Virus record (IMG/VR): IMGVR_UViG_3300020463_000007
Location: 64,001 to 128,000 of that record
DNA from: a virus
DNA length: 64,000 nucleotides
Direction: 5' to 3' (one strand)
Under the pieces are notes generated by a model that was not told the origin of the DNA, did no database searches, and saw only the letters and a program-made list of their open reading frames with translations. Below, in pieces: positions 3,754-19,241 of this stretch. The translations under genes were made by a program, and so were the position numbers. The stretch's first letter is position 1. Each line of letters begins with the position of its first letter.

Positions 3754-6700
3754 TTATGCAGAGAAATACATACTTGATAAATAATGGCCATCTGCTCCAC
3801 CTTTTATAATCATTTTTTGCGGCACTTCAATTGTCGCCGCCGCAGTTTGGTTTATATTGTTAGTTGCTACTGTAATTTGTCCAACATTCAATTTATTTGT
3901 GCTGGCATTAGATCCGCCACCACTTACTCTTGACGATACATAAGCAGCAATAGCTTTTTGTGTTGGTACAATATTGTTAGAATTTGCAATAAATGTTTGC
4001 TCTTTAGAAAATTCATTAACTACAACTGCTGTACCACCTATTACAACTCCACCCAAAGTAAGACTTTGTAATCCAGAAAAATTAAATAAACTAGAATTTA
4101 AAGTAATAATACCTGTGGATTGTTCAACTAAGAATTGCTCGCCTGCTCTGAAGTTACCGTCCTGATCTGTGGAAGTATAAAATACTCTACCGCCGCCTAC
4201 TTCAATTACTTCATTAAATTGTTTTGGTTCTGCTCCTGATTCAAAATTGTAACCATCTGTATACAATATCGGATAATTTGTTTCACTGAAATCTCCTGTA
4301 CCTATATCAAGGAAGTCATGTCCTGTCAATCTTATTTGACTATAGTTTTCTCTTAGTTCAACGCTTGTACCATGAGTTGGTGATTCAGCGTTTCCTATTG
4401 CAGGATCTACCTTAATTGTAATATTGTAAGGACCTGCTCCTGATTGTTGGTCGATACTTACGACTTTGTAAATTATGTCATTTATACCATTGATGATAAT
4501 ATTTTCTCCAGGCCCTGGTAAAGCTGTGACACCTTCTAATACTAATTGCTGTCCAGTCTGGAATATTTCAGCATAGCCCGAACCTGATATAGTTGCACTT
4601 GCTACGTTCCAATCTAATCCTCTAGCATTAAACACAGGCTGTCCTAACACTCCAGATGCCGCCACATTGACTGTGTAATTTGCATCAATTGTATTAGGAT
4701 AATCGTGAACTGTAACTGTAGGTGCAGAACTATATCCGCTACCTGGATCGTAAATTGTAAATCCTGATATACGTGATGACGCAACATCAGCTCTAATAAT
4801 AGGTTTAGCACCGTAGTTAACTGAACAAGCATCAGTAGTACCTTTTGACCCTATAAATGCTGGCATACCGGAAGCCGTTAATCCTCCAGCAACCACAGCA
4901 TAACCTCCTGTGGTAGTAAATGCTTTAGTAGTACTATCATCTAATATAGATGACCACACACTTGCAGATTGAGAAGTAATTATTGTGTTATCTGCACTAT
5001 TAGTACATAACCAAACTCCTTGTGTATATGCAAGATTATTCCATAGTCCTGTTGTACTGTCTTGTAAATTTGTTATATTAATATAAGAATCATACCATGT
5101 TATTCCATCTAGACTGTAAATTATTTTTGAATCACTATTACCTACAGCAACAAATCTACCATTAGCATATTGCATATCTTGCCAGTTTGATGTTACAGGT
5201 AAAGTTCTTGTAGTCCATGTTGTTCCGTCTGTAGAAGTTAATGCAGTATTACCTGATTCTGGTAATATTACAAAAACACCGTTGCCATATTCTATTAATT
5301 TGTTTTGTCCAGATATAGTGGTTCCTGCACTCCAGGATACACCGTTGTTTGTACTGATAGCAGTCTCTGTTGCACTTCCGCTTGAAATTGCAATCCATTG
5401 ATTTGCTTTAAATGCAATATCTATCCAGTTAGCTCCGTTTGCTAAAATTGTTTGTGTCCAACTTTGTCCATTATCTTGAGACAAACCTCCTACTGTGGTT
5501 TCAGTTGTACCTTGCAAGGCAACCATATAACTGGTTCCTTTCATTGCTTTAACTTTGGTCCAAGTTCCTGTTGTGCTTCCTGTAGACGTAGTCCATGCAC
5601 CCCCGGCATTTCCAGAGTAAGAAATTAAATCTGTTTTAGCAATTACAAAATTAGTATCATTTGCTGTAATTGTATCTATTTTATGAGGTACTGTTAATGC
5701 TGTACTTGCGAATGCTGGCTCTGTAACGTCTACCCTAGGTTCGATAGCATATCTAGTAGCTGATGTAAGTGTTCCTATAATTGGGTATCCAGGATATATA
5801 TGTTCCCATCCTGCGGTTCCGTCACTTTCTCTTTCAACTGTAGCAACTTTTGTGCCGCTGTTGTAAGAACTTATTCTTGCATATTGTCCGTCTCCTGCTC
5901 CTGATAGTATAACAATACGTTGTCCTACATAAGCTGCCGAAGTACCTGTTGTATCTGCATTAGATAACTTAATACTTGTAGTGTCTCCTTCTTGGGCGTT
6001 GTTTACAATATATGTGTAATTTAATCCACCAGGTGTACTTGAATCTCCTGGATCTGTAACTCTAATATTAGTCAAAGCATTTTTTCTTAATTCTTCAAAA
6101 CCTGCAACTACTCCATATCCTGATCCAGATAAATTAATTGAAGGTGTACCTGTGTAGTTTTCTCCTGCATTACTGTATCCAAATGCTAGTGCAGATGTTC
6201 CGTTAGTTTCTACTACACGTATTTGAGCTTGTTTAGATCTATTGTTTACTGTTCCTGTTTTAGCAGTTTCTGATGGATTTACACCTTCAGCTACAGATCC
6301 AAAATCTCCATAAGAGTTGTTTCCATTTGTTGCTCTAACCTTTCCTCCAAATTCACAGAGATAGCCTATATGGTTATAGTATGTAAACACAGACACAAGT
6401 TCTGATTTGCCATCATAACTACACCAATAACCTATACCGTCTGGTAATATTTGTGTGAAATCGTTTGCAACGATAGATCTATTTCCTGCATTGTGTAAGC
6501 TACCGTCTACTCTAAGTCCTGTACAACCTGTTCCAAATGAAGATACATTTTGTATATAAGGAGATTTTGACGTAATATGAACAGTAGTATCTCCTGGACC
6601 TGTGCCAGGATCTAAACTGACATATGCACCTGCTGTAGGTCGTCTTGTTCCATAACTGTTAGGAGTGCCAAGTGTACCACTAAGCCCATTCAAAGACATG

Positions 6701-14453: not shown

Positions 14454-14813
14454 TTAAATAGCTGTTAACCTAATTAATGATTCTGTTGAATCGTCTTCAA
14501 CAGTCCACTTGTAACGATTGTTATCAAAGTCTACTGCTGTTCTGTTGAACATTTTTTTAAGTATTATTGCTCCACCACCTGGTGTAATACCTACTAAAGC
14601 ACATTCGCCTTCTGCATTAGGTGCAATTTCATTTACTAGTCTGCAAATTTTTGCAGAACCAGCGGCACTATCGCAATTAAATTTGTTAGTACCTCTTTGA
14701 GAAAGAATAAATCCTTCTCTAGATGCTGTACCATCATGGTATCTAATTGCTATAGTTGGTTGAGTATTGTCGCCTGTTGCGCCAAAAAATCTCTTGTTAA
14801 TTGGTCTTCCCAT
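14454..14813 (-). CDS. Small late protein, possibly capsid-associated
   Basis: 119 aa (MGRPINKRFFG...), AAGGAG RBS, own late promoter and terminator. Confidence 0.8.
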   Translation of the reverse strand: MGRPINKRFFGATGDNTQPTIAIRYHDGTASREGFILSQRGTNKFNCDSAAGSAKICRLVNEIAPNAEGECALVGITPGGGAIILKKMFNRTAVDFDNNRYKWTVEDDSTESLIRLTAI

Positions 14814-14898
14814 TTGTTTTCTCCTTTATACTTTTTACGTAATACGCAGTAGGTCAATCTGCATAAGTCCACATTAGTGGCCCGATTTATGACACAAG

Positions 14899-14905
14899 TA
14901 TTTAT
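14899..14905 (-). promoter_or_regulatory. T4-type late promoter (ATAAATA)
   Basis: Motif 85 nt upstream of the ATG at 14813. Confidence 0.65.
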
Positions 14906-14934
14906 CAGTTTACAAATAATTGTTTTGGAATAAT

Positions 14935-14967
14935 AAAAAAGAGAAAAGACGTCATAAGACGCCTTTT
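14935..14967 (-). terminator. Intrinsic terminator closing the putative ncRNA
   Basis: Minus strand AAAAGGCGUC-UUAU-GACGUCUUUU then CUCUUUUUU. Confidence 0.7.
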
Positions 14968-14974
14968 TAAAATA

Positions 14975-15189
14975 GTAAGCAAAATAGGTAGGACTTGGTT
15001 ACACCTACAAGCACGTACCGGAATACCATTCTAATACGTACAACCTAACCCCGCTAGTGACTGCGATGTGAACCTGCGGATTTCTCCTACAAGCCCTGGG
15101 TACCATCCCTGGTTAGTCAAGTTCGACCCTTCTGGTAAAGGCCTCTTCCTTGCACTATAATTAAGAGTTAATTACTCTCCTAATGCTTA
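14975..15189 (-). ncRNA. Putative stand-alone structured ncRNA (~215 nt), family unassigned
   Basis: No long ORF; GC-rich (32/60 in 15061-15120); flanked by a sigma70-like promoter and a terminator; 5' and 3' ends pair (UAAGCA/UGCUUA); several stems with G-U pairs and a GAAA tetraloop on the minus strand. Confidence 0.7.
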
Positions 15190-15195
15190 ATTACT

Positions 15196-15223
15196 AATAT
15201 AACATCTTTATGTGTAAAGTCAA
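15196..15223 (-). promoter_or_regulatory. sigma70-like promoter for the ncRNA
   Basis: TTGACT (15223-15218), 16 nt, TATATT (15201-15196) with extended -10 TG and an upstream A-tract. Confidence 0.65.
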
Positions 15224-15244
15224 CCTTTTTTGGATAAAAAAGTC

Positions 15245-15270
15245 AAAAAAATAGGCCCCGAAGGGCCTAT
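15245..15270 (-). terminator. Rho-independent terminator of the capsid operon
   Basis: AUAGGCCC-UUCG-GGGCCUAU followed by UUUUUU, 21 nt after the gp23 stop. Confidence 0.92.
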
Positions 15271-15291
15271 TTAAATTAGTTGTGTTAACTA

Positions 15292-16461
15292 TTAGCTGAA
15301 GCTTACGTTACCGTTAGTAATTGCAACGTTACCTAAGTAATCAGCCGCGTTACCAAGCGATGAAGCTGAGTTAGAAAGCTCAACGTAACCATATCTAGTC
15401 ATGAAAGACACAACTGGTTCGAATGAACTTGGATCTAACACTACACCACTACTCATCAATGGAATGTATGGGCAGTAGAATGCAGCAGCATCAGACTCAC
15501 TAGTACCTTTGTAGCCAACAAGTACAGCAGCATTATCAGCCGCATATGTGTTGACATACACTTTCATTGCACTATTTAAAGTTCCAACTAACTTAGTGTT
15601 TGTTGGTGCTTCAAAAGTACCTTCAGTAGTACGAGCGAACGCAGAAGTTGTAGCAGATTGTAGAATTGTTAACGCAAATGGGCTAACAACTGCAAAGTTA
15701 CCTGCACCTCTTCTTGTTCTTTGAGCGATCAAGTTTGATACTCTGTTAATTTGAACTGCAAGAGCAGCATGCTCATCACCAACAAAAGTAGCTGTACCAG
15801 ATACAGCAGCTTGGTCATAAGTTTCAGCGGCTGTTCCAGACAATGTAGTTAAGCTCTGAATGATCTCTTGATCAATTTCAGCGGTAATTTCTTGTGCTAA
15901 AGCAGCCATAATTTCTGCTTCTACATCAATACCGTGCATGGATTGTGCATCCTGTGCAGCTTCAAAAGTCCAGCGAGCTGATAGCTTTCTGGATTTTGCT
16001 TCTACAGTCTGTTTTAAGATCTGGATGGACATTTTACGTCCTGGCAAACCTTCTTTGGTTGCAGTTGCATCAGCAACACCAGACGGATCTGTACCCGTAC
16101 CTGAGTATGCAGTTGCAATTTTGAATGGGCTAAGAGCCTCTTCACCTGCTGTTGCGTTGTCATTGCTTTCAGCATAACGAACGCGAAGTGTGTGGATCTG
16201 ACCCACTGGTCCTGTCATCGGCTGTACGCCTACCAACTCGTTAGCGATAACTGTTGGCATCACACGTCTGATGACTGGAAGAATAACACGGTTAAGTGTT
16301 GCGATATTACCGGCGGAAGTTGCACCTGTGCCTGCTGCCTCTGACAAATACTTACGAGTGTTTTCGAGTGTACTTGCCATAACTGCTTTCTTGTTGCCAT
16401 TTAAGCCTTCAAGAAGAGCACCTTTGGTCTCCTGCCAGCGACTTTCTAGTAGTTCTGACAT
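15292..16461 (-). CDS. gp23: Major capsid protein (T4 gp23 family)
   Basis: RRVMPTVIANELVGVQPMTGPVGQI, VEAKSRKLSARWTFEAAQD, EITAEIDQEI, FYCPYIPL, FMTRYG motifs. Confidence 0.97.
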   Translation of the reverse strand: MSELLESRWQETKGALLEGLNGNKKAVMASTLENTRKYLSEAAGTGATSAGNIATLNRVILPVIRRVMPTVIANELVGVQPMTGPVGQIHTLRVRYAESNDNATAGEEALSPFKIATAYSGTGTDPSGVADATATKEGLPGRKMSIQILKQTVEAKSRKLSARWTFEAAQDAQSMHGIDVEAEIMAALAQEITAEIDQEIIQSLTTLSGTAAETYDQAAVSGTATFVGDEHAALAVQINRVSNLIAQRTRRGAGNFAVVSPFALTILQSATTSAFARTTEGTFEAPTNTKLVGTLNSAMKVYVNTYAADNAAVLVGYKGTSESDAAAFYCPYIPLMSSGVVLDPSSFEPVVSFMTRYGYVELSNSASSLGNAADYLGNVAITNGNVSFS

Positions 16462-16475
16462 ATTATATCTCCTTA

Positions 16476-17567
16476 TTAAATTCCAGCTAAACGTCTAATG
16501 TCAACGACATTATCGTCTACTGTTTTACTAGTTTGAACTATTTCTCTATTGCCTGTAATTTCTGTGCCTTCTGTAAGTGTAGCCTTTTTAGCTTTTTCTG
16601 GTGCTTCGCCGTCTATAACCGTTGGCAAATATTTGTCAAACTGAGATTGTAATCTGTTAGTTTGAACTGATTCCAGTAAGTCTTTCATAATCTCTTGCTG
16701 TTGATTACTTAATGGTGCAATCAACCCATGCATGATTTCTTTACGCTGTGCAGATTCAACAAGTTGTTTCTTTTGTTCTTGTTGTGCTTCTACTACTTTC
16801 TTTGCTTTAACAGCAAATGCTTTAGCTTCTGCTATCTGCTTGTCTTTAACATTAACAACTTTTAATAACTTAGCAGTTTCTGATTTTTCGTTTAGATAAC
16901 TACCTTGATATTCATTTGCAAATGCTTCAAACAATTTACGCCCAAAGTCATTTTTACGTGCTGCATCAATGTCTTCTTTAAGTTGTTTAATTTCTCCTCT
17001 AAGAGCTTTGTCAACTGTTGAAGAAACTGCTTTAGCACTTCTTTGAATAAAGTTTTCTTTAACTTTAGCCAAGTGTTTCTTAGCTTCTTTGACAAGTTTT
17101 ACCTTGGTAGCAGCTAAGTCTTTTTTGTCTTCGTAGAACTCAGATATTTCGTTGGCCAATGCGTCAACAACAAAATTTTCTAATTTAGAAAAGTTGTTAG
17201 CCATTGATTTTTGTTCTTCGTGTAGCTCTGAAACCTCTTTTTTAAGTGATTCCATTACAAAACCTTTTAGTAACTTTGCATTTTCACGCATAGCTACTGC
17301 ATATTTTGCTTTAGCTTCAGAAAGCTGTTTACGATCTTCTGTAAATTCAGTAATTTCTGCAGATAATCTCTCAGATACTAAGTTGTCAATGGCTTCTACC
17401 ATAGTAGCCTTATCGTGTTCGTATTTCTGAGCGAATTCCTCACGGAGTTCGGCGGTTACAGCAAGTTTATTTTCTTTAATTTTTGCTTCCCACGCTTCTT
17501 CAATTTGTTTACGCACATCCTCTGAAACAACATCGTTTTCGAAAAGTGTTTTTAGTGCATCCAACAT
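16476..17567 (-). CDS. gp22: Prohead core scaffolding protein (gp22-like)
   Basis: 363-aa coiled-coil E/K/A-rich protein between protease and capsid genes. Confidence 0.85.
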   Translation of the reverse strand: MLDALKTLFENDVVSEDVRKQIEEAWEAKIKENKLAVTAELREEFAQKYEHDKATMVEAIDNLVSERLSAEITEFTEDRKQLSEAKAKYAVAMRENAKLLKGFVMESLKKEVSELHEEQKSMANNFSKLENFVVDALANEISEFYEDKKDLAATKVKLVKEAKKHLAKVKENFIQRSAKAVSSTVDKALRGEIKQLKEDIDAARKNDFGRKLFEAFANEYQGSYLNEKSETAKLLKVVNVKDKQIAEAKAFAVKAKKVVEAQQEQKKQLVESAQRKEIMHGLIAPLSNQQQEIMKDLLESVQTNRLQSQFDKYLPTVIDGEAPEKAKKATLTEGTEITGNREIVQTSKTVDDNVVDIRRLAGI

Positions 17568-17582
17568 GTTTTATTTCTCCTT

Positions 17583-18209
17583 TTATTGGAGTCTACTGAT
17601 TATATTAATCAGAGATTCTTTTAAATATTTTTGTGCCTTAGGGTCTTCTTTTGTTGCCTGTGCAAATTGATAAGCCTTCATTCCACCTCGTGCATTCATA
17701 AGTTGTTCATAAATTGGAGTTGGATATGCACCGGGTGCTGATGGCTGTGCCACTACATCCACAGTGATAATTTCAAAATCGGAAACTTCTCCGTTTCCGC
17801 TTTCACTAACGTTACCAGAACCACGTGATGAGACACCTAGTTTGACTCCGCTTTCAAGCATTGTTTTCACTAGTTGTCCCATAGGTGTTGGTAAAATTTT
17901 AAGTTTTCCGTAACCGTTGTCGCCTTCCATCCACATTTCTGTGATCATATGGCTTACACGATCTAAATTAATATTCAGTCCTTCTGGATGATCAACTTCG
18001 CCGAGAACGCTATATCCGCCTGAGCATTGATCGTTGAGAGTTTTGACAGCCCTACCAATTTCTTGTACAGGATAAACACGCTGGTTAGCGTTGCGTACTC
18101 CGCCTTGTATACAAATACCTTTCATATACAAGTCTTTCCCTTCATTGGCAGACTCAACGACAATTTTTGCTTCGTCGAAAGTCAGTGTCTCAGATAAATT
18201 CATCACCAT
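17583..18209 (-). CDS. gp21: Prohead protease (gp21)
   Basis: N.NQRVYP, GEVDHP, LDRVSH, TPMG, LGVSSRGSG, DVVAQPSAPGAY motifs. Confidence 0.95.
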   Translation of the reverse strand: MVMNLSETLTFDEAKIVVESANEGKDLYMKGICIQGGVRNANQRVYPVQEIGRAVKTLNDQCSGGYSVLGEVDHPEGLNINLDRVSHMITEMWMEGDNGYGKLKILPTPMGQLVKTMLESGVKLGVSSRGSGNVSESGNGEVSDFEIITVDVVAQPSAPGAYPTPIYEQLMNARGGMKAYQFAQATKEDPKAQKYLKESLINIISRLQ

Positions 18210-18227
18210 CCAAATACCTTATATTAA

Positions 18228-19241
18228 TTAGCTACCAATAGTACTTTTTTTATTGGCTGCTGTGTCGCCTGCGCCTTTTTTCTCTGCGCCATGGCCTTTA
18301 GTATCAGACTTCATTGACTTAGAAGCTTTGCCACCTGGAACATTTACGTTACCACTTGCAATATCTTTTGGACTTGCTGGTGTCATACCTTTTTCGTCTG
18401 CGCCTTGTACTAAGTTTGAAGCATCTCCGCCCATGTTGTTAGCACCTGCTACTGGAGACTTGGTGTTTGCACCGTTGTCACCCATTTTAGGTGTAATTTT
18501 TTCAACATATTCACGCATCTGCTCTGTTGGAGATAGTTCTTCTTTAGAACCTTCCTCAACCTCGTCGTCTGATGTTTCATCAACTTCTTCGTCTGATGCT
18601 TCTGGCATTTCTTCGTCGCCTTCTTCATCGTCCATATCCATCTCAGCATCATCAGCTGGCATTTCATCTTCAGCGTCGTCCATATCGTCTCCGCCTTCTT
18701 TGTCTGCCATCATTTCTTCAAATTCTGCTTTTAATTCGTCTAAAGCGTCTTCTAGATCTTCGACTCTTTCTTCCATGTCGCCTTCTGGCTCATCTTCGCC
18801 GCCTTCTTCGTCGCCCATGTCAGCAATATCAGCCATCATACCATCAGCTGCATCACCTTTGTCCATGTCCATGTCGTCTTCGCCTTCGACTTCAAATTCA
18901 TCAAGATTAAAATCTTCTTCTACTTCATCATCATCAGAAGCTTCATCGACTTCTTCGTCGCTTTCTTCTTTCATCTCTTTGTCTTTTTTGGCTTTTTTCG
19001 CTTTTTTCTCAGCGTCATCGTCCATTGCTTCGTCAACTTCTTCATCATCTTTAGAAGCTTCATCAACTTCCTCATCAGATGTTTCATCTACTGACTCATC
19101 TTCTAGATCATCTTCTAAAAGGTTTTCATAAATTTCTCTGGATTTCTCAACCACAATATTGTGGAAAAGTTCTTCTGCTTTGGCCTTGTCTTCGTTAACC
19201 AGGCATTCAAGCATTTCTTCGAATTGTTTTGAATCTGCCAT
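18228..19241 (-). CDS. Highly acidic prohead core/internal protein (gp67-like role)
   Basis: 337 aa, D/E-rich with repeated SDEEVDE units; first gene after a late promoter, upstream of gp21. Confidence 0.75.
   Translation of the reverse strand: MADSKQFEEMLECLVNEDKAKAEELFHNIVVEKSREIYENLLEDDLEDESVDETSDEEVDEASKDDEEVDEAMDDDAEKKAKKAKKDKEMKEESDEEVDEASDDDEVEEDFNLDEFEVEGEDDMDMDKGDAADGMMADIADMGDEEGGEDEPEGDMEERVEDLEDALDELKAEFEEMMADKEGGDDMDDAEDEMPADDAEMDMDDEEGDEEMPEASDEEVDETSDDEVEEGSKEELSPTEQMREYVEKITPKMGDNGANTKSPVAGANNMGGDASNLVQGADEKGMTPASPKDIASGNVNVPGGKASKSMKSDTKGHGAEKKGAGDTAANKKSTIGS

Follow-up and report, generated by a model that had tools for sequence, protein, structure and literature searches.

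The manA RNA family (RF01745) was first recognised in 2010, in marine metagenomes and in cyanophages of the T4-like type; the authors graded it as a candidate riboswitch acting in cis and considered its pseudoknot doubtful (Weinberg et al., 2010, PMC2864571). The seed alignment of that study shows flanking tRNAs as well as a promoter/terminator pair. More recently, manA RNAs were found to build RNA-only cages of 8, 10 and 60 subunits in vitro. Cryo-EM showed that kissing loops between molecules (L5-L7', L8-L9' and L3-L8') hold these cages together, along with a GNRA contact (L6-P6'); in 2026 manA was thus reported to form a natural icosahedral cage of RNA only, the first of its kind, though solely in vitro and outside any biological context (Ren et al., bioRxiv 10.64898/2026.07.01.735769). 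GOLLD and ROOL are natural RNAs that likewise form RNA-only homo-oligomers (Nature 2025, PMC12286853). Both are several-fold longer than the RNA described here, and Rfam scans revealed no relationship with it in sequence or fold. GOLLD and ROOL are often phage- or prophage-borne and adjoin tRNAs. Phage T4 itself makes two small stable RNAs of unknown function, species 1 and 2 (rnaC and rnaD), which are produced by the host polymerase and encoded beside tRNA genes. Some manA copies also lie beside tRNAs, an analogy that concerns gene organisation only.

The window analyzed here, a stretch of 64,000 nucleotides, lies within a 155,565-bp IMG/VR record. Since a record of this length is only ~44% complete, the window is assigned to an uncultured jumbo phage. 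At 66-71% identity, the capsid protein resembles that of jumbo phages of 340-470 kb, examples being Vibrio phage 2.275.O, Phosso, the GAP32 group and CBB. The head module (15292-19241, minus strand) encodes a protease (phrog_207), a phrog_10922 protein and the capsid protein, which is also the gene order of GAP32-type jumbo phages. The RNA unit is arranged on the minus strand in the order capsid-gene terminator, promoter, RNA body, RNA terminator, late promoter motif, freshwater-2 leader and 119-aa ORF. These features, in which R1 denotes a covariance model built in this analysis, are:

15292-16461, minus strand: major capsid ORF, matching phrog_138 (major head protein)
15249-15272, minus strand: intrinsic terminator of the capsid gene with a 10-bp stem, UUCG loop and T-run (terminator scan and sequence)
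15196-15233, minus strand: sigma70-type promoter with upstream A-tract (sequence and scan)
14976-15189, minus strand: manA-family RNA body of ~214 nt, nine-helix manA fold inside an outer stem (RF01745 match, R1 match, covariation)
14935-14967, minus strand: intrinsic terminator belonging to the RNA unit itself, with a stem at 14967-14944, a UUAU loop and a T-run (terminator scan)
14905-14899, minus strand: late promoter motif ATAAATA, 3' of the RNA terminator and 5' of the next ORF
14811-14882, minus strand: freshwater-2 leader (RF02980), 42.4 bits, below the 49.9-bit cut-off
14454-14813, minus strand: conserved 119-aa ORF (MGRPINK...), its AGGAGAAAACAAATG coming after the freshwater-2 leader

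The original prediction of a stand-alone non-coding unit beside the capsid gene was borne out by this inventory: promoter, structured body and terminator are all present on the minus strand, and dozens of diverged relatives conserve the promoter, the terminator and the insulation against adjacent late genes. The UUCG terminator said to insulate the unit was found at 15272-15249, where it keeps late transcription of the capsid gene apart from the RNA unit. The promoter consists of a -35 element TTGACT (15223-15218), a 16-nt spacer, the extended -10 dinucleotide TG (15204-15203) and the -10 element TATATT (15201-15196). Within the 155-kb record it is the sole instance of a TTGACN plus extended -10 promoter, for which shuffles expect 0.35, and the strongest consensus promoter altogether; from its type, early expression of the RNA would be expected. 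The predicted transcription start (~15189 ± 2) is the first base of the outer stem, in which UAAGCA (15189-15184) pairs with UGCUUA (14981-14976). Because transcription starts directly in this stem, the predicted RNA is almost devoid of a single-stranded 5' leader. At the other end, the terminator begins 4-9 nt past the closed outer stem without overlapping it, and within the full-length transcript its hairpin pairs with an average probability of 0.99; the predicted 3' end at ~14936-14942 gives a primary transcript of ~250 nt.

Downstream of the RNA terminator lies GATAAATAC, which we take to be a T4-type late promoter motif. The freshwater-2 leader that comes next attains 67-77 bits in the relatives L008, L045, L024 and L053. 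Located between the late promoter motif and the start codon of the 119-aa ORF, it appears to be a late-transcript leader of a structural-module gene in these giant phages. Searches of Pfam and PHROG gave no match for the ORF itself. As the next gene is thus provided with a late promoter and a leader of its own, the window RNA does not qualify as the leader of that gene.

No match was obtained when the window was scanned at the Rfam gathering thresholds. In an E-value-based scan of the 551 nt from 14800 to 15350, positions 14978-15183 (minus strand) matched RF01745 over its full length (positions 1-192 of 192) with 41.5 bits and an E-value of 2.4e-9, that is below the gathering threshold of 55.2 bits. 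Apart from manA, no Rfam family was significant over the RNA body. Homologues were retrieved by blastn, which revealed a copy of 70.6% identity in Pelagibacter phage Mosig, and by nhmmer combined with R1, which located copies just 3' of the capsid gene in related IMG/VR contigs. R1 itself matches the window at 14971-15197 (minus strand) with 220.8 bits. Four homologues exceed the RF01745 cut-off (L001, 64.0 bits; L002, 56.4 bits; L053, 55.7 bits; L024, 55.5 bits), and both nhmmer (E-values down to 1e-33) and R1 (220-256 bits) connect them with the window copy. The window copy stays below the gathering threshold, yet the homologues linked to it pass, and membership in manA therefore rests on transitive homology. 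By these sequence comparisons the window RNA is a divergent member of a catalogued family and does not represent a new class of RNA. The original prediction had recognised no known family, had proposed an Rfam scan and had held that a hit to a known family removes novelty; with the full-length match to manA, novelty is indeed removed. It had not recognised the RNA as a tRNA or tmRNA, and ARAGORN detected no genes of either kind anywhere in the window.

The window RNA shares with RF01745 the nine-helix architecture, the conserved AGUG junction, a GUGGU-type loop, a GAAA loop of the GNRA class, the final hairpin, whose loop is conserved, and a closing helix, and both occur in aquatic T4-like phages. 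It differs in that its closing helix is AU-rich instead of GGG/CCC, that an extra outer stem is present, that the seventh loop lacks ACCA, and that the copy has its own promoter and terminator and is not situated in a 5' UTR. Furthermore, it is carried by a phage related to the GAP32-type jumbo phages and not by a cyanophage. The family hereby gains members in such relatives of GAP32-type phages and in pelagimyophages. The 155-kb record contains a single manA copy according to R1, and the phages with the closest cultured capsids (Vibrio phage 2.275.O, Sinorhizobium phage Phosso and Cronobacter phage GAP32) yielded no R1 match; their post-capsid spacers measure ~100 nt each.

The minus strand folds at -79.5 kcal/mol with z = -3.0 against shuffled sequences, the plus strand with z = -1.9. 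An alignment of eight sequences by MAFFT and RNAalifold comprises 64 pairs, 37 of which show compensatory changes. In a model-based alignment of 24 distinct sequences 92.1% of the cells pair, as against 34-43% when the partners are slid, both sides change in 63 of 68 pairs, and the observed pairing values were reached in 0 of 500 shuffles; this alignment was fitted to the model and hence leans towards the model fold, but the margin is large and the MAFFT/RNAalifold alignment is independent. The stems CUAACC/GGUUAG, GGG/CCC, GGA-GAAA-UCC, GUACGUA/UACGUGC, GUAGG/CCUAC and others map one to one onto the manA helices. All of the hand-folded stems, that is those just named together with UAAGCA/UGCUUA, AGAGU/ACUCU and GGCCUUU/AAGGGUC, recur as consensus helices with compensatory changes in homologues. 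The existence of two ORFs of 30-33 codons overlapping the region, among them one of 33 codons at 15005-15106 (minus strand), might suggest that the fold arises by chance or that a short protein is encoded instead of an RNA. In the homologue alignment, however, indels are placed in loops, substitutions in helices are compensatory and no coding frame is kept, and the full-length match is to an RNA covariance model. Since the covariation data already contradict it, this explanation has practically no likelihood, and in terms of comparative evidence the folded RNA is real.

The signals surrounding the RNA are conserved to different degrees. Scanning IMG/VR by pattern and then with R1 yielded 73 further matches; with the copies found earlier, the set comprised 67 non-identical copies. 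The promoter is kept at a fixed distance from the outer stem in 55 of the 67; it has the form TTGAC-N-TANNNT, ends 5-7 nt before the outer stem and is usually accompanied by an A-tract and TG. An intrinsic terminator beginning -3 to +4 nt from the model end is present in 34 of the 67 copies. The sequences of these 34 terminator stems vary widely while the 3' part of the RNA is constant, and the hairpins form with mean pair probabilities of 0.89-1.0 in full-length transcripts. Complementarity of the terminator's 5' arm to the RNA before it did not exceed that of shuffled arms, and no anti-terminator is therefore seen.

These properties bear directly on the possibility that the manA fold is a ligand aptamer and the terminator at 14967-14944 its expression platform, gating early read-through into the late genes. 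Promoter, aptamer, terminator and a gene on the same strand do make up a classical riboswitch layout, manA was rated a riboswitch candidate in 5' UTRs (Weinberg et al., 2010, PMC2864571), and some homologues are located directly 5' of ORFs with no terminator in between. On the other hand, the terminator of the window copy stands clear of the closed outer stem, terminator stems vary freely among the 34 homologues next to a constant RNA, the terminator hairpin forms with a probability of ~0.9-1.0, and complementarity to an anti-terminator does not rise above shuffled controls. The exclusive pairing of terminator and anti-terminator overlapping the aptamer, by which termination riboswitches are defined, was not found. 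Nor does the window copy occupy the 5'-UTR position implied by the Rfam type Cis-reg, a criterion of context and not of structure: a strong terminator and a separate late promoter stand between the RNA and the next ORF, which has a leader of its own. Copies abutting tRNA genes have nothing to switch, and a manA ligand was reported neither by Weinberg et al. (2010) nor in the preprint by Ren et al. Control of the downstream gene by a riboswitch or attenuator is thus clearly unlikely for this locus. The kept promoter, the immediate terminators, the lack of an anti-terminator and the varied neighbours argue for a free-standing early RNA and not for a switch serving the next gene.

The neighbours of other copies are indeed diverse. 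About 15 homologues without a terminator run directly into a gene (gp32, redoxin or rubrerythrin), where manA might well act as a leader, and in another copy manA is followed by a nucleotidyltransferase/mannose-6-P isomerase gene. Eleven pelagimyophage-like contigs (L136, L098, L115, L169, L122, L124, L097, L133, L147, L099 and L138) carry promoter and manA without a terminator, followed by TATAAATA, an A/C-rich leader and gp32 (PF08804). With this arrangement, early transcripts for the ssDNA-binding protein would carry manA at their 5' end. In phage Mosig (L001, MT647606 108157-108386) manA lies directly 5' of a rubrerythrin gene and in L131 directly 5' of a redoxin/AhpC-TSA gene, in both cases without an intervening terminator, so that two peroxide-defence genes are found beside manA. 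In L113 and L100 (identical to L040) a tRNA-Gly(UCC) gene starts at the last bases of manA and the terminator follows the tRNA, and in L159 the manA unit resides among genes for tRNA-Gly, -Thr, -Leu and -Trp. Processing by RNase P would release manA as a free RNA from the copies that abut tRNAs.

Since downstream genes differ among the copies, promoter and RNA emerge as the constant parts. One might consequently regard them as a mobile cassette whose 5' structure has a non-specific role in cis, capping and thereby protecting or marking early transcripts or insulating late genes, with the free RNA being devoid of function. That the cassette precedes genes as unrelated as gp32, redoxin, rubrerythrin, nucleotidyltransferase/mannose-6-P isomerase and tRNAs in different phages, and that transcription starts directly in a helix, would fit such a role. 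Nine helices, conserved loops and covarying loop-loop complementarity, however, far exceed what a 5' stabiliser needs, and beside the capsid gene the conserved terminator leaves the RNA with nothing attached at its 3' side, so that this explanation is quite improbable. The window element is, with good confidence, a free-standing RNA gene of the manA family.

How the RNA may function is suggested by its hairpin loops. They are numbered here by taking the nine helices in order with the GAAA (GNRA) loop as L6, a numbering whose correspondence with that of the preprint is our own and not taken from its figures:

15133-15137, minus strand: L3, UACCA, the loop on the third helix, to which each of the two UGGUA loops is complementary
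15101-15105, minus strand: L5, loop UGGUA of the GGG/CCC hairpin, equivalent to GUGGUG, a conserved loop in the Rfam consensus for manA
15024-15028, minus strand: L8, loop UGGUA of the long GUACGUA/UACGUGC arm, its UGGU complementary to ACCA
14996-14999, minus strand: L9, the ACCA segment of the 11-nt loop on the final hairpin (stem GUAGG/CCUAC), counterpart of UGGU in L8

Complementarity between loops was scored against 300 permuted pairings of sequences, permutations that ignore the relatedness of the sequences, with the following results:

L8 x L9: observed 4.22; permuted 3.65 ± 0.06; observed value reached in 0 of 300
L3 x L8: observed 3.92; permuted 3.51 ± 0.07; observed value reached in 0 of 300
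L3 x L5 (the pair originally proposed): observed 4.15; permuted 3.92 ± 0.08; observed value reached in 0 of 300
L5 x L7: observed 4.01; permuted 3.85 ± 0.08; observed value reached in 9 of 300, a weak signal

Four control loop pairs gave no excess complementarity over permutations. More than 15 distinct complementary pairs of L8 and L9 occur among homologues, including UGGU:ACCA, AUGGAAU:AUUCCAU, AUGAUC:GAUCAU, AGGAU:AUCCU and CUGAU:AUCAG. As judged from these alignments, the clearest loop-loop covariation is that between the last two hairpin loops, L8 and L9, in agreement with the kissing loops of the manA cages, although such covariation looks the same for pairing within and between molecules. 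All of the kissing partners named in the preprint (L8-L9', L3-L8' and L5-L7') are complementary in the window RNA if the above numbering applies; the cages were made in vitro from other manA variants. For the pseudoknot that had been drawn between UACCA and UGGUA (L3 x L5) the loop positions proved right, and the pairing itself is a weakly supported candidate, one among several competing loop-loop options. A second proposed pseudoknot, CAAGU with ACUUG, had to be rejected: ACUUG belongs to a local helix, as the 3' strand opposite CAAG, and this helix is paired in 100% of the sequences and has the compensatory variants CUAG/CUAG, CAUC/GAUG and GCGC/GCGC, the last loop remaining constant.

The explanation that we favour overall, with a probability of roughly 0.6, is a free-standing manA-family gene whose released RNA self-associates via its hairpin loops. 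Host sigma70 RNA polymerase would start at ~15189 on the minus strand, cross the ~214-nt nine-helix fold and stop at the unit's own terminator near 14940. In the infected cell, the RNA would then be released as a free molecule, most likely binding to its own copies by way of the UGGU/ACCA and UACCA/UGGUA loops. Taken separately, the notion that the window RNA works as a self-associating assembly in vivo is a tentative one, to which we give slightly less than even odds. Against the free-standing, self-associating RNA stand the assignment of manA to the Cis-reg and riboswitch classes in Rfam and in the 2010 study, the ~15 terminator-less copies preceding genes and the score of the window copy below the cut-off. 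Among the functions initially suggested, a scaffold comes closest to the RNA-only cages formed in vitro (Ren et al., bioRxiv 10.64898/2026.07.01.735769), and no support was obtained for a decoy or a ribozyme.

For a family that has been a riboswitch candidate since 2010 and for which neither the study of that year nor the 2026 preprint reports a ligand, the anatomy of the gene bears on this gap. A strong promoter of host type with its start in the closing stem, a terminator that is kept but varies freely, a promoter reserved for the next gene and, in some copies, tRNA neighbours make up an anatomy that recurs in dozens of relatives, which argues that at least one branch of manA is made as a free RNA, as a self-assembling particle needs. 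It is conceivable, if on the doubtful side, that giant and T4-like aquatic phages express manA as a free and abundant early RNA that assembles in the cell into RNA-only rings or icosahedral cages and serves as a compartment or scaffold during infection. Should this be true, cages within the cell would overturn the 16-year-old label of a cis-regulatory riboswitch. Pelagibacter phage Mosig on HTCC1062 offers a cultured carrier system for manA.

The region behind the capsid gene harbours still other elements. The glutamine riboswitch aptamer (RF01739), absent from the window, is present between capsid gene and manA in relatives with 47-55 bits at a cut-off of 35 bits (L024, 3972-4021; L008, 4234-4281; L053, 4666-4713), and its occurrence beside manA in several relatives marks the post-capsid spacer as a hot spot for structured RNAs. 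In the closest relative (L117/L002), whose capsid protein shows 96% identity, the manA terminator and the freshwater-2 leader are separated by an inserted radical-SAM/SPASM ORF (4852-5820) that has a TATAAATA of its own.
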